The notes under the pieces were generated by a model that worked only from the letters and a program-made list of their open reading frames with translations, ran no database searches and was not told where the DNA came from. A stretch of DNA of 64,000 bases. Origin: Escherichia phage vB_EcoM_DE16. A program made the translations under genes and the position numbers. This document shows, piece after piece, positions 20,856-61,656 of the stretch (position 1 is its first letter; each line of letters starts with the position of its first letter). The stretch lies in the sequence record OP595145.1; one strand, written 5' to 3'.

Positions 20856-21803
20856 CTACAAACTTTCAATAACCTGGCGTCGCAATTCGTTTGCATCTGC
20901 CAGATTATAATGTGTTCGAACATGTTCAGCCAAGAACAAGCCACGATCTTCCCGATAGTTTGGATTGCGAAGAAGCTTAACAATTTCGTAATGCCATTCT
21001 GCTTTATTCTCTGCGTAAGCAACAGCACGAGCATCTACAGGGTTAAAATAAGGTAACACCTTAGAACAAACAATCGGAATACCTTTTGCCCCAGCTTCCA
21101 GGATTTTGAGATTACTTTTGCAATTATTAAAATCATTATCTACCAAAGGAGCTATAGCAATAGCATGACTTTCGTAAACACTCATGTAATTATCTAAATC
21201 TTTTACAGCAGCTTTATATTTAGCGTTTGGTAAATTTCTGCGAATCTTAATCCACTCTTGTCCCGTGATGCTCTGTGATGCTTCATATCCCGCAATAGTA
21301 AGAAGTTCATCATCGAAAGTATTAGAGACTAGTCGTAAGTCGGGTTCGTGACTAGCACCGCCAGCCCATACAACAGGGGTACCGGATGAACGATCATTTG
21401 ACAAAGTGAATTGTCCACTATCAAAAGGAAGTGCATTTCGGATCACAACAACATTCCTATTTAAGTGACGGATCTTATATGCCAAGTATTCCGTAGTCAC
21501 AATAACCACATCAGCAAGCTTAACCATAGCCACAATAGCATGAGTGTTTGACTCGTATAAACTTGCCAAATAATGCTCTGGATTAAGTTGGTAAAAATCA
21601 TCTAAGTCTACAACAATCTTAACACCTTGACGTTTCAAAGATAAAACGTATTCTGCACCTTTAGAGTGGATACGGTTAAACACAACAACATCTTTCTTAG
21701 GTTGAATATTACTGTTGTTAAATGGTATAACAATACGATGATAGTCACAACCGCTGTGAGGTTTTGCATCAATTTTTAGTTTAGACCATTTTTTATTTGA
21801 CAT
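20856..21803 (-). CDS. glycosyltransferase-like protein (paralog 2 of a tandem pair)
   Basis: 315 aa; colinear similarity to 19904..20848 over the whole length (CDYHRI, NNCKSNLKILEAGAKGIPIV, HVRTHY). Confidence 0.5.
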   Translation of the reverse strand: MSNKKWSKLKIDAKPHSGCDYHRIVIPFNNSNIQPKKDVVVFNRIHSKGAEYVLSLKRQGVKIVVDLDDFYQLNPEHYLASLYESNTHAIVAMVKLADVVIVTTEYLAYKIRHLNRNVVVIRNALPFDSGQFTLSNDRSSGTPVVWAGGASHEPDLRLVSNTFDDELLTIAGYEASQSITGQEWIKIRRNLPNAKYKAAVKDLDNYMSVYESHAIAIAPLVDNDFNNCKSNLKILEAGAKGIPIVCSKVLPYFNPVDARAVAYAENKAEWHYEIVKLLRNPNYREDRGLFLAEHVRTHYNLADANELRRQVIESL

Positions 21804-51621: not shown

Positions 51622-51801
51622 ATGGCACGTTTAGCAGATCATGAAATCTTTAAACCTATTCTGAACCACTATGATGAACTTAAAGCAGTGTTGGATTGTT
51701 ATAGAGAGGATGAAGAACGTTTGGAAGTCAATCTTAAGATAGTTCTGATGAAAGCTTTTCAAGACGGGCAAGCTAAAGTTTTAGAAGGCATGAAAAAATG
51801 A
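51622..51801 (+). CDS. hypothetical small protein
   Basis: Track ORF trimmed to ATG after AAAGGAG; 59 aa. Confidence 0.35.
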   Translation: MARLADHEIFKPILNHYDELKAVLDCYREDEERLEVNLKIVLMKAFQDGQAKVLEGMKK

Positions 51802-52340
51802 GAATAACTGATGAATATGTATTCTTCTTTTCACATAAAGATGTGTTTAGTAATTGGTATATTGCACCCTTTACAGAAACTGAACCAGGTTACAATGAGA
51901 CTTTCTGTTGTGTTGAGCAATATATGATGTGGCGTAAGGCTTTGCTGTTCAAGGATCATGCGATTGCAGCAGCTATCCTTGATCACTCGACTATACGTGA
52001 CAACGAGAGGAAACAAGCTTATTACAAACGTATGGGTAGGGCAGTGTCGGATTTTGATAACAACGTATGGGAAGAGAACCGTGAGCGTATTGTTATGCGA
52101 GGTTTATGCTTGAAATATGTACAGAATCCAGATTTGTATGCAGACTTACACCTTTACCAATACAAAACGTTTGTTGAAGCAAGCCCCTACGATAAGGTTT
52201 ACGGAATTGGAATGGGGATGTATGAACCAGGGGTGCTAAACCCTGCCACCTGGAAAGGGCAGAATCTTTTAGGCAAATATCATAATAAACTGATCGAAAT
52301 ACTTTTCCCAGACAAAATACCGCAAAGACGATATTTGTGA
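51798..52340 (+). CDS. NADAR (YbiA-like) domain protein
   Basis: 180 aa; FFFS...FSNWY, FCCVEQYMMWRKALLF, ASPYDKVYGIGMG follow the NADAR pattern. Confidence 0.55.
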   Translation: MRITDEYVFFFSHKDVFSNWYIAPFTETEPGYNETFCCVEQYMMWRKALLFKDHAIAAAILDHSTIRDNERKQAYYKRMGRAVSDFDNNVWEENRERIVMRGLCLKYVQNPDLYADLHLYQYKTFVEASPYDKVYGIGMGMYEPGVLNPATWKGQNLLGKYHNKLIEILFPDKIPQRRYL

Positions 52341-52395
52341 TATTTTAACTTTTTTCATTTTTAGAACAAAGGTGTCACTTTGTAGCACAGAAATA

Positions 52396-52430
52396 AGGCT
52401 CCTACAGCACCGTAGAGAGCCTATTATTTT
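52396..52430 (+). terminator. terminator-like hairpin after the NADAR gene
   Basis: AGGCTCCTAC-AGCACC-GTAGAGAGCCT imperfect stem followed by ATTATTTT. Confidence 0.45.
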
Positions 52431-52581
52431 GTCCTATACAAACCTTGTCTTTTTCAGTTTGCATCACTAGGATTCGATCTGAGTGGGTTCCTGAAGGTCT
52501 GCCAATAAGATTAAAGGTTATCTCAAATTCCCATTACCTATTATCTCAAAAATCCCTCAAATTATTTAAACTTTTTAAGAA

Positions 52582-52758
52582 TTTACAAAAGTGAAAGTTG
52601 AAAACCAAAATTTAAAGTTTAGGAAAATTATCTTAAAATGTTAGATACAAAACAAAACTCAAAAGTCAAGGAAAATTTTAAAAATTTTGCGCGCCCACAG
52701 TATTTAAAGTTTTTTTGCTTTTACAAAAATGAAAGTACAAAAGCAAAATTTAAAGTTT
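52582..52758. repeat. AT-rich direct repeats (two ~39-bp copies) with embedded TTTAAAGTTT near-palindromes
   Basis: TTTACAAAAGTGAAAGTTGAAAACCAAAATTTAAAGTTT (52582-52620) vs TTTACAAAAATGAAAGTACAAAAGCAAAATTTAAAGTTT (52720-52758). Confidence 0.6.
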
Positions 52759-52807
52759 ACAAAAATTTATGCAGGTGGGAATGAGAAGAGTTCTCATGTG
52801 GAAATGC

Positions 52808-52886
52808 AAATGATAATGATTCGCATTTAGGTTTATAAATGAGATTGATTCTTATTCAATAAGGTAAATGATAATCATTCTCATTT
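52808..52886. promoter_or_regulatory. two Fur-box-like palindromic operators
   Basis: AAATGATAATGATTCGCATTT (52808-52828) and AAATGATAATCATTCTCATTT (52866-52886) vs Fur consensus GATAATGATAATCATTATC; also palindrome AATGAGAAGAGTTCTCATG at ~52779-52797. Confidence 0.45.
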
Positions 52887-53117
52887 AGAGAATGACGCGC
52901 AGGGGCGGTGTTTGTCTCGCGCTCCCGTGTCCCCTCGCCATGTAATAAGAATAACAGATCCAGCCAGGAAAGCAAGCGATTATTTTATCTTTACATTTCT
53001 TTACAAATATATAGCGCCCAGCCTACCGGCGATCAACCTTCCAACCAGCGCCCTGGTATGTTAGCCCCGCCTTTACGCCGTGGGGTGGCGCTTCCTCTTC
53101 TGTATGTAAAACAGTAT

Positions 53118-53160
53118 AAGCCCGATCCCTGGGCTTGTCAAGATTATTTTTTGTTTTCTT
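53118..53160 (+). terminator. terminator-like hairpin at the end of the GC-rich island
   Basis: AAGCCC-GATCCCT-GGGCTT stem then TTTTTTGTTTTCTT 10 nt downstream. Confidence 0.3.
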
Positions 53161-53519
53161 GCCAGGATAGGACACCTAACCAAAAATGCATATCGCCCCG
53201 CGCCCCTGGTGGGATCTTGCTTTCCCCGCCGCCACTGCAAGCCCATAAATAACCATCAGCGAACGGATCAAAGTTTTCTATTTCTTCCACCTTATGATCG
53301 CCCAGGTTGAGAACGGTTTCAACCTTTAAGCCCGTTGCGCTTGCTACCTGGTGCACCGTGCCGCCTTGCCAGCCCAATGAGTGCATAAGGTGTAATGTAG
53401 TATTTGTCATGGTATCGCCCTTTCTTTGTTGTGCGCCCTGGTTGGCGCGGTAGAAAGATGATAGCCGTTTCCTTCATATACAGCAAGCAAAAAGAAAATA
53501 AAAAAGATTGAAAAAGTGG

Positions 53520-53548
53520 TTGACGTTCCTCACCTGGTAGCGTAGTAT
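53520..53548 (+). promoter_or_regulatory. sigma70-like promoter with long leader
   Basis: TTGACG, 17 nt, TAGTAT; ~135-nt leader before ATG 53683. Confidence 0.4.
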
Positions 53549-53682
53549 TCATCTTGTCGAGGGGGCGCGGCACAACGACAATAAACAACAGGAGGGCGCA
53601 ATGTAGGACGGGCAAAGGTGAGGATCTCCATAATCCACCGTCCACCAACAAAAAACATCATTCATCACCTGGAGTTAAAATC

Positions 53683-53880
53683 ATGGCAACATTGCACATA
53701 GTAGCGAAAGCAGGACAAATCAGCGTCGTGGTAAACGGTTTTACTGAGTTCAGTCATCCCCAGGATGATCATGAAACGGTTTTATCTTTTATTGATTCCT
53801 TGTTAGAAATGGGAGTCATTACAGAAGACCAGCACGCTACAAAATGCAAGCGCGTTAATCAAATTGCAGGGATAGAATAA
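53683..53880 (+). CDS. hypothetical early protein
   Basis: Track ORF trimmed to ATG after GGAG; 65 aa. Confidence 0.35.
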   Translation: MATLHIVAKAGQISVVVNGFTEFSHPQDDHETVLSFIDSLLEMGVITEDQHATKCKRVNQIAGIE

Positions 53881-61048: not shown

Positions 61049-61273
61049 GTGAAACAAATGATCACGAATAAGACAGGTAAAACGGAATTTTTACGCAGCT
61101 TGCAAGTTGGTAAACCTGAGATTTGGCATTGTACTAAATCCGCGCATAATGAAATGAAAGATTTTACCGCTACTTTACAACGTGTTAAAATATCTATCAC
61201 ACAGAAAAAAGCCTTGTTAGTAGTAGAAAACGAGATCCCGCAAACTATTATTATTGTCGAGCGTACAGCATGA
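61049..61273 (+). CDS. hypothetical early protein
   Basis: 74 aa; AAGGTG RBS. Confidence 0.4.
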   Translation: MKQMITNKTGKTEFLRSLQVGKPEIWHCTKSAHNEMKDFTATLQRVKISITQKKALLVVENEIPQTIIIVERTA

Positions 61274-61656
61274 AAACAGAAATCATTATTGAAATCATCA
61301 ACGGCTATAAAGAAGCCTTTATTTTTGCTGAATCAGCAAGGGATCATGAAGGTAATTTTATTGATAACTTAGACGATTATGATTTTTCTCCTAGCGCAGA
61401 TCAACGGATCGCCCAGGATGTAACAGCCTTTATTAATGCTAATCTTGCCGCTATCTCTGAGGCAATGAGCGACGGCGCAACAGCCAACCAGATCGGGAAT
61501 GATTTACATTTTACCCGTAACGGTCACGGCGTAGGCTTTTGGGATCGCCCTGAAATATACACCACTAACACAGCCAACCGCCTAACCAATGCAGCTAAGT
61601 TTATGCCGAACGTGTCGGCTTACATTGGTGAAGATAATTTGATTTATATTGAATAA
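61270..61656 (+). CDS. hypothetical early protein
   Basis: 128 aa; ATGA coupling. Confidence 0.45.
   Translation: MKTEIIIEIINGYKEAFIFAESARDHEGNFIDNLDDYDFSPSADQRIAQDVTAFINANLAAISEAMSDGATANQIGNDLHFTRNGHGVGFWDRPEIYTTNTANRLTNAAKFMPNVSAYIGEDNLIYIE

Follow-up and report, generated by a model that had tools for sequence, protein, structure and literature searches.

Fur-like boxes in a phased array beside a conserved non-coding module of Escherichia phage vB_EcoM_DE16

That phages carry sites for regulators of their hosts is already known. The stx1 promoter is regulated by Fur, and virulent cyanophages have pho boxes and NtcA sites. A Fur box is found upstream of sitABCD on lambdoid prophages (PMC6969025). 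In such systems the operators of a host stress regulator lie on the phage genome, so that transcription can track the nutrient state of the host, and they control an identifiable cargo gene. Here, we have analysed a stretch of 64,000 nucleotides from Escherichia phage vB_EcoM_DE16 (OP595145.1; the whole stretch is called the window) and describe an array of four palindromes that resemble Fur operators. The array likewise places operator-like sites of a host stress regulator on a phage genome, but it is multi-copy and phased, it flanks a non-coding RNA module, and its type is common to unrelated virulent phages. What appears to be new is that unrelated virulent phages have phased, multi-box arrays of predicted Fur sites in non-coding hubs, one of which is the injection-stop region of T5.

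The native Fur operators of E. coli, such as those of ryhB, fhuA, fecI, fepB-entC and fhuF, follow the 19-mer consensus GATAATGATAATCATTATC with the core TGATAATnATTATCA. Overlapping Fur sites offset by 6 bp are a feature of native operators (Chen et al. 2007, PMC2189734). The phage boxes (15.8-19.1 bits with the matrix described below) are within the range of the native sites, show the same 6-bp-offset overlap and share identical 15- to 16-mers with the ryhB and fhuA operators. They differ from the native operators in three respects. No iron-related gene lies downstream of them; within a non-coding hub of a virulent phage, up to 4-6 discrete boxes recur regularly at 29 bp; and in the present phage they are overlapped by no clear strong promoter.

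Four palindromes resembling Fur operators

The window is from a Phapecoctavirus (Stephanstirmvirinae), and its box region is 99% identical to that of ESCO5 and 98.5% identical to that of phAPEC8. With a repeat finder, we located four copies of a 19-bp imperfect palindrome that start at 52780, 52809, 52838 and 52867, with a spacing of exactly 29 bp:

52780..52798, no strand: Box 1, AATGAGAAGAGTTCTCATG; moderate Fur-like site, 11.6 bits at 52777-52795, 15/18 to the phage box consensus.
52800..52830, no strand: Box 2, core AATGATAATGATTCGCATT at 52809-52827; overlapping sites shifted by 6 bp.
52838..52856, no strand: Box 3, AATGAGATTGATTCTTATT; 16/18 to the array consensus, weak Fur score.
52864..52888, no strand: Box 4 (the proximal box), core AATGATAATCATTCTCATT at 52867-52885; top Fur-like site of the window.

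An earlier note, made from the letters of this DNA, had described two near-consensus Fur boxes that share a tail and are preceded by a third palindrome. Both boxes are present, AAATGATAATGATTCGCATTT at 52808-52828 and AAATGATAATCATTCTCATTT at 52866-52886, and ATTTAG follows each of them. The preceding palindrome is Box 1 at 52780-52798, and the note had overlooked a fourth copy, Box 3. Box 4 agrees with the classical 19-mer at 16/19 positions and is the sole match with three or fewer mismatches in 64 kb, where 0.05 would be expected. Box 2 agrees at 14/19 positions (manual count) and has two mismatches to the 7-1-7 core (direct reading). The 15-mer ATAATCATTCTCATT is common to Box 4 and the ryhB operator, and ATAATCATTCTCGTTT is common to the rV5 box and the fhuA operator.

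Likeness to Fur operators was scored with a symmetric matrix of 19 positions, refined from the textbook consensus on 12 Fur-repressed promoter regions of E. coli K-12 (fepA-fes, fepD-entS, fepB-entC, fhuA, fiu, tonB, cirA, exbB, ryhB, fecI, fecA and fhuF). The training sites score 10.7-20.7 bits, or 6.4-19.2 bits when each is left out in turn. At 12 bits or more, the matrix finds 17 sites inside the 12 Fur promoter regions and only 2 elsewhere (both 12.1 bits) in 76.5 kb of K-12 DNA. The top two scores in the 64 kb of the window belong to Box 4 (19.1 bits at 52864) and Box 2 (15.8 bits at 52806), both within the range of native sites. Further matches at 52870 (12.4 bits) in Box 4, and at 52812 (14.1 bits) and 52800 (9.4 bits) in Box 2, complete two clusters of sites offset by 6 bp, 52800/52806/52812 and 52864/52870.

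The earlier note had suggested comparing the boxes by weight matrix with shuffled AT-rich sequence, and the observation stands because they outscore it. When the local 27%-GC region or the array alone was shuffled 5000 times with dinucleotides preserved, no shuffle reached 19.1 bits, and none contained four or more matches of at least 12 bits. Shuffles of the whole window reached 19.1 bits in 0.5% of cases. The resemblance to Fur operators thus goes well beyond AT-richness, and chance is excluded. At the level of sequence, the boxes are indistinguishable from strong native Fur operators of E. coli. Other matrix matches in the window (e.g. at 21122 and 61240-61290, the latter inside open reading frames (ORFs)) score no more than 14.1 bits and were judged to be background.

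The boxes could have been the remnant of a captured host promoter, as the earlier note had proposed. A blastn search against 5,426 complete E. coli genomes gave no match at E ≤ 0.01. Because of this, and because the boxes are old and conserved in several phage subfamilies (see below), recent capture of a host promoter is not supported by the sequence comparisons.

A palindrome may be a site for a dimeric protein or the stem of a hairpin, and the two are expected to vary differently. We compared the mirror positions of 43 distinct boxes from myoviruses and 54 from T5-like phages, and found that about 20% are non-complementary (75/387 and 98/486, respectively), without compensation. At the most variable mirror pair of the 43 myovirus boxes, 18 have G-C, 24 are mixed and none has T-A, the asymmetric form GATAAT...ATTCTC being the commonest. 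Each half of a box holds the half-site consensus independently, and only the right half of Box 4 takes part in a terminator-like hairpin. As the variation is uncompensated and the halves are independent, the boxes behave as protein half-sites rather than as selected stems, which points to a dimeric protein as their ligand.

Conservation in myoviruses and in T5-like phages

A sensitive blastn search with the region retrieved orthologous loci in other Stephanstirmvirinae and in Vequintavirinae and, unexpectedly, the terminal repeat of T5-like siphoviruses. Scanned with the K-12 matrix, the orthologous non-coding loci have 5 boxes in phi92, 4 in phiWec186, 4 in phiTE, 2 in rV5, and 1 each in Seunavirus and Mydovirus. 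The conservation that the earlier note had asked for is therefore seen across several phage lineages. Box number and spacing vary among genera and the arrays cannot be aligned one box to another, and yet the motif is retained while the adjacent non-coding DNA turns over. This is the pattern expected of binding-site clusters under selection. The dominant spacing of box centres is 29 bp in both the myovirus and the T5-like groups.

From IMG/VR, we recovered 13 contigs of relatives by a conserved 26-mer anchor to the right of the boxes. A strong box lies 186-198 bp upstream of the anchor (232 bp in one) in 12 of the 13, so that the proximal box stands at a fixed distance from the structured element of about 220 nt described below. 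The thirteenth relative (a 145,759-bp contig) has no box, and other sequence stands in place of the left half of its conserved element. An exact match to the degenerate 20-mer AATGAKAATYATTCTCATTT is found in at least 120 IMG/VR stretches, many of them small contigs whose type was not assigned; among the matches listed, 33 of 116 carry two or more boxes within 300 bp. Some of these matches, in AT-rich contigs, may be due to chance.

Boxes 2-4 of the window are 71-86% identical to T5-like terminal repeat regions over about 55-110 bp (blastn), and two T5-like phages have 5-6 boxes in the terminal repeat by the K-12 matrix. In T5 (AY587007), palindromes G and I, which coincide with copies 3 and 4 of direct repeat C, score 17.5 and 18.6 bits. 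Palindrome D of T5 (AY587007 9332-9347) is a perfect LexA box, CTGTATAAATATACAG, with a consensus DnaA box and Fur-like boxes nearby, and the LexA box recurs in two further stretches (2818-2833 in one; 2866-2881 and 2967-2982 in the other, in their own numbering). Repeat Region 3 in the left terminal repeat of T5, to which direct repeat C and the palindromes E, G and I belong, is a candidate injection-stop region, and the LexA box of palindrome D lies within that region too. For it, the Davison preprint (10.1101/866236) proposes anchoring by DnaA and makes no mention of Fur or of LexA.

The window locus and Repeat Region 3 of T5 have in common the motif, 29 bp as the commonest spacing, and lineage-specific direct repeats that adjoin the boxes. 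They differ in that T5 belongs to an unrelated family (siphoviruses of the Demerecviridae) and has its boxes in a 10-kb terminal repeat with DnaA and LexA boxes beside them. Unlike that of T5, the window locus is not in a long terminal repeat at the first-step-transfer boundary, and no consensus DnaA box or correctly spaced LexA box was seen when the window region was read by eye, without a pattern search. The relationship provides a testable Fur candidate for T5 palindromes that have been annotated without an assigned function.

The adjacent non-coding module and how Fur could act on it

The boxes of the window lie between an AT-rich block and a set of features read mainly on the minus strand:

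52540..52775, no strand: AT-rich block to the left of the boxes, about 26% GC, with lineage-specific direct repeats (repeat finder, composition profile).
52864..52893, plus strand: candidate rightward sigma-70 promoter GTAAAT-18-GAGAAT, weak, with Box 4 in its spacer.
52874..52896, minus strand: terminator-like hairpin GUCAUUCUC/GAGAAUGAU, then UAUCAUUU (terminator scan), formed in part by the right half of Box 4.
52886..53112, minus strand: structured, non-coding element, about 220 nt long, aligned in sets of 7 and 16 lineages.
52948..52975, minus strand: candidate inner leftward promoter TTGCTT-16-TATTCT, 7/12 to consensus here.
52990..53004, minus strand: GTAAA-N5-GTAAA direct repeat, GTAAAGAAATGTAAA, just upstream of the inner promoter; sole match in the window.
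53113..53160, minus strand: strong leftward sigma-70 promoter TTGACA-17-TATACT, 11/12 (promoter scan), with an upstream A/T-rich tract.
53144..53410, minus strand: ORF of 88 amino acids, function unassigned; matches PHROG 19316, patchy distribution.

The element of about 220 nt is conserved across Stephanstirmvirinae and Vequintavirinae, in phages of hosts from E. coli to Pectobacterium. It contains a GC-rich stem-loop (52890-52942) with a nearly invariant loop, GGTGTTTGTCTC (52907-52918, plus strand), and pairs that covary (AU 9/GC 7; GC 10/CG 4). With G-U included, standard pairs make up 98% of the cells of predicted pairs on the minus strand vs 89% on the plus strand; this comparison is biased, as the minus strand was the one used for structure prediction. 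At the 3' end of the minus-strand unit, the GC-rich stem-loop is followed by the 9-bp hairpin and a U-rich tail that come in part from Box 4; the minimum-free-energy fold of the minus strand from 52945 to 52866 is -27.3 kcal/mol (z -3.7). A scan of 52200-53800 against Rfam on both strands at E ≤ 5 gave matches at chance level only and no family for the element. These data also suggest that Vequintavirinae and Stephanstirmvirinae share a conserved non-coding RNA module that has not been described before.

The strong leftward promoter is kept in 12/12 lineages at 9-12 of 12 consensus positions. A GC hairpin makes up its spacer; this hairpin shows covariation from genus to genus and could also serve as the terminator of the 88-amino-acid ORF. 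The inner leftward promoter reads TTGCAA-17-TATATT (9/12) in most of the Vequintavirinae lineages examined. The GTAAA pentamers beside it are invariant in 12 lineages while their 5-nt spacer varies, and the repeat resembles a CpxR box. On the other strand, TTGAAT-18-(T/C)AGAAT is conserved in Vequintavirinae, with the proximal box filling the 18-nt spacer.

We consider it somewhat probable that host Fur binds the array, and that the array would gate the convergent non-coding RNA module, act as a sink for Fur, or both. As 29 bp is about the length of the Fur footprint on one 19-bp box, iron-replete Fur would be expected to coat about 110 bp. The array sits between the AT-rich repeats and a module with convergent promoters. 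Iron-loaded Fur on the array would close the rightward (antisense) promoter, whose spacer is the proximal box, and would halt leftward read-through into the AT-rich repeats, since the same box abuts the terminator-like 3' end of the leftward RNA. From its position in the spacer of one and at the 3' end of the other, occupancy of the proximal box should block both. How much of the module is transcribed in sense and how much in antisense would then be set by the iron status of the host during infection. Arrays on replicating genomes would also titrate Fur, and the roles of gate and sink are compatible.

Several observations weigh against this proposal. The canonical GATAAT/ATTATC on both halves is found in 0/43 myovirus and 2/54 T5-like boxes, so that a binder of slightly different preference is possible, and Box 3 is a weak site by the Fur matrix, at 5.7 and 7.4 bits. 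The rightward promoter of the window is poor (-35 GTAAAT, 6/12 overall), which makes the role of a classical operator weakest in the present window, and the conserved GAAT that follows the box has three possible readings: a -10 element, a component of a hairpin, or an additional Fur hexamer. T5 breaks down the DNA of its host early, which would limit the benefit of a decoy in T5. In the literature searched, we found no paper that ties Fur boxes to T5 or Fur sites to these virulent phages, Fur is not mentioned in the phiR2-01 paper, and a search for transcriptomics of these myoviruses returned none.

Binding of Fur to these arrays, if it occurs, would mean that strictly lytic coliphages, which serve as therapeutics and as models, sense or disturb host iron status. 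Both in the gut and in infected tissue, iron status is a dominant variable. It is a speculative extension, which we regard as doubtful, that unrelated virulent phages of enterobacteria (T5-like, rV5-like and phi92/phAPEC8-like) share a non-coding hub that reads the state of the host through its own global regulators. Such a hub would have Fur arrays throughout, together with LexA and DnaA sites in T5-like phages and CpxR-like sites in myoviruses; it would control the RNA of about 220 nt in myoviruses and coincide with the injection-stop region in T5. Were this true, Fur and LexA would become candidates for a part in the two-step DNA transfer of T5 or in the early handling of its genome.

Alternative readings and neighbouring sequences

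The boxes may instead be operators of a dimeric DNA-binding protein encoded by the phage, such as the product of the 88-amino-acid ORF or A2 of T5, with the likeness to Fur sites being incidental or a form of mimicry. This is conceivable but unlikely. A small ORF adjoining an array of palindromes is the usual layout of repressor and operator, the full canonical Fur form is rare, and Box 3 matches the array consensus at 16/18 in spite of its poor Fur score. The array consensus also prefers TGAGAAT half-sites; GAGAAT, however, is common in the native Fur operators of fecI, ryhB, fhuA and exbB. Moreover, no significant match to a Pfam domain or to a DNA-binding domain was found for the 88-amino-acid ORF, no homologue of it was found at the loci of rV5, Seunavirus, Mydovirus and T5-like phages, all of which bear boxes, and homologues of A2, the DNA-binding protein of T5, are found only in T5-like records. 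These comparisons do not support a binder that the phages encode in common. That unrelated phage families with the same hosts have one motif fits better with a host factor present throughout Enterobacterales, and the sequence points to Fur.

Alternatively, the array may bind Fur mainly as a sink and thereby derepress the host regulon (iron uptake, the Mn-dependent ribonucleotide reductase and RyhB), which would aid phage DNA synthesis. The Fur titration assay relies on the titration of Fur by boxes cloned on multicopy plasmids, and these phages have several strong sites per genome (5-6 in each T5-like terminal repeat). ESCO5 encodes a class Ia ribonucleotide reductase, which is iron-dependent, and has further boxes outside the window: its record opens with a Fur-like box, AATGATAATTATTCTCATT (positions 1-22, 17.2 bits), and another lies at 148333-148351 (15.3 bits) in a terminal non-coding region of about 1.5 kb. 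On the other hand, a sink would need neither fixed positions nor 29-bp phasing, and would gain little where host DNA is destroyed early, as by T5. Seunavirus and Mydovirus keep a single strong box in a constant place beside the non-coding module, which favours a role in cis. We therefore regard titration as the main function as quite unlikely.

That the palindromes are origin iterons for a phage initiator is very unlikely. They do recall the origin of lambda, where four imperfect 19-bp palindromes form a regular array beside an AT-rich region; here, four evenly spaced palindromes adjoin the 26%-GC repeat block, the strong promoter is directed towards that block, and DnaA boxes lie beside the T5-like versions. 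Unlike the lambda iterons, the motif of the window is the consensus of host Fur, is present in 1 to 6 copies among relatives, and is shared by phages with unrelated replication genes (Stephanstirmvirinae, Vequintavirinae and Demerecviridae). Better candidates for iterons are the direct repeats on the left side, which are specific to the lineage. In the AT-rich block, a 72-nt unit recurs after 138 bp and is accompanied by shorter iteron-like repeats, and different repeats, containing GATC and with the core TCTCGATC, occupy the equivalent place in other genera (phiTE, BIS47 and rV5). This block could be an origin or a binding site for a phage-encoded protein. GC skew tracks the direction of transcription in the window and turns at about 45 kb, not at the box locus, and electron microscopy put the origins of T5 near the centre of its genome (10.1101/866236). 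Genome termini were considered as well, and rejected for this locus, which is away from the genome ends (in ESCO5, the record continues for about 9 kb between the locus and its end).

It is least likely of all, indeed extremely unlikely, that the palindromes act as hairpins, i.e. RNA terminators or processing sites or DNA cruciforms. In favour of hairpins, the right half of Box 4 enters a minus-strand hairpin of 9 bp with a U-rich tail, folding of the array region is better than that of shuffles (z -5.3 for the minus and -3.0 for the plus strand), and a terminator is annotated within the matched stretch of the equivalent region in phiTE. Against them, the stems are AT-rich and weak, mirror changes are uncompensated with the asymmetric GATAAT...ATTCTC in 24 of the 43 myovirus boxes, and each half holds its consensus separately. 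The readings as sites of a phage-encoded binder, as origin iterons and as hairpins are thus weakened, not eliminated.

The array lies inside a gene-poor stretch of about 1.2 kb, which is limited on the left by the terminator of the NADAR-domain gene (last position 52340) and on the right by a series of small plus-strand genes that starts at about 53560. The features at its left limit are:

51798-52340: upstream NADAR-domain gene (domain match E = 1.8e-35).
52396..52432, plus strand: intrinsic terminator that closes the NADAR-domain gene, annotated as a terminator in phAPEC8 and ASO2A.

Published annotations between the NADAR-domain gene and the plus-strand genes conflict. ASO2A and phi92 annotate the 88-amino-acid ORF on the minus strand, whereas phAPEC8 annotates a 114-amino-acid ORF on the plus strand (52908-53252) over the conserved element. 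We rejected the latter as an improbable coding sequence: in phi92, an indel of 1 nt falls within the conserved block, and the ORF matches no family. The NADAR-domain gene itself is named 'GTP cyclohydrolase II' in several phage records.

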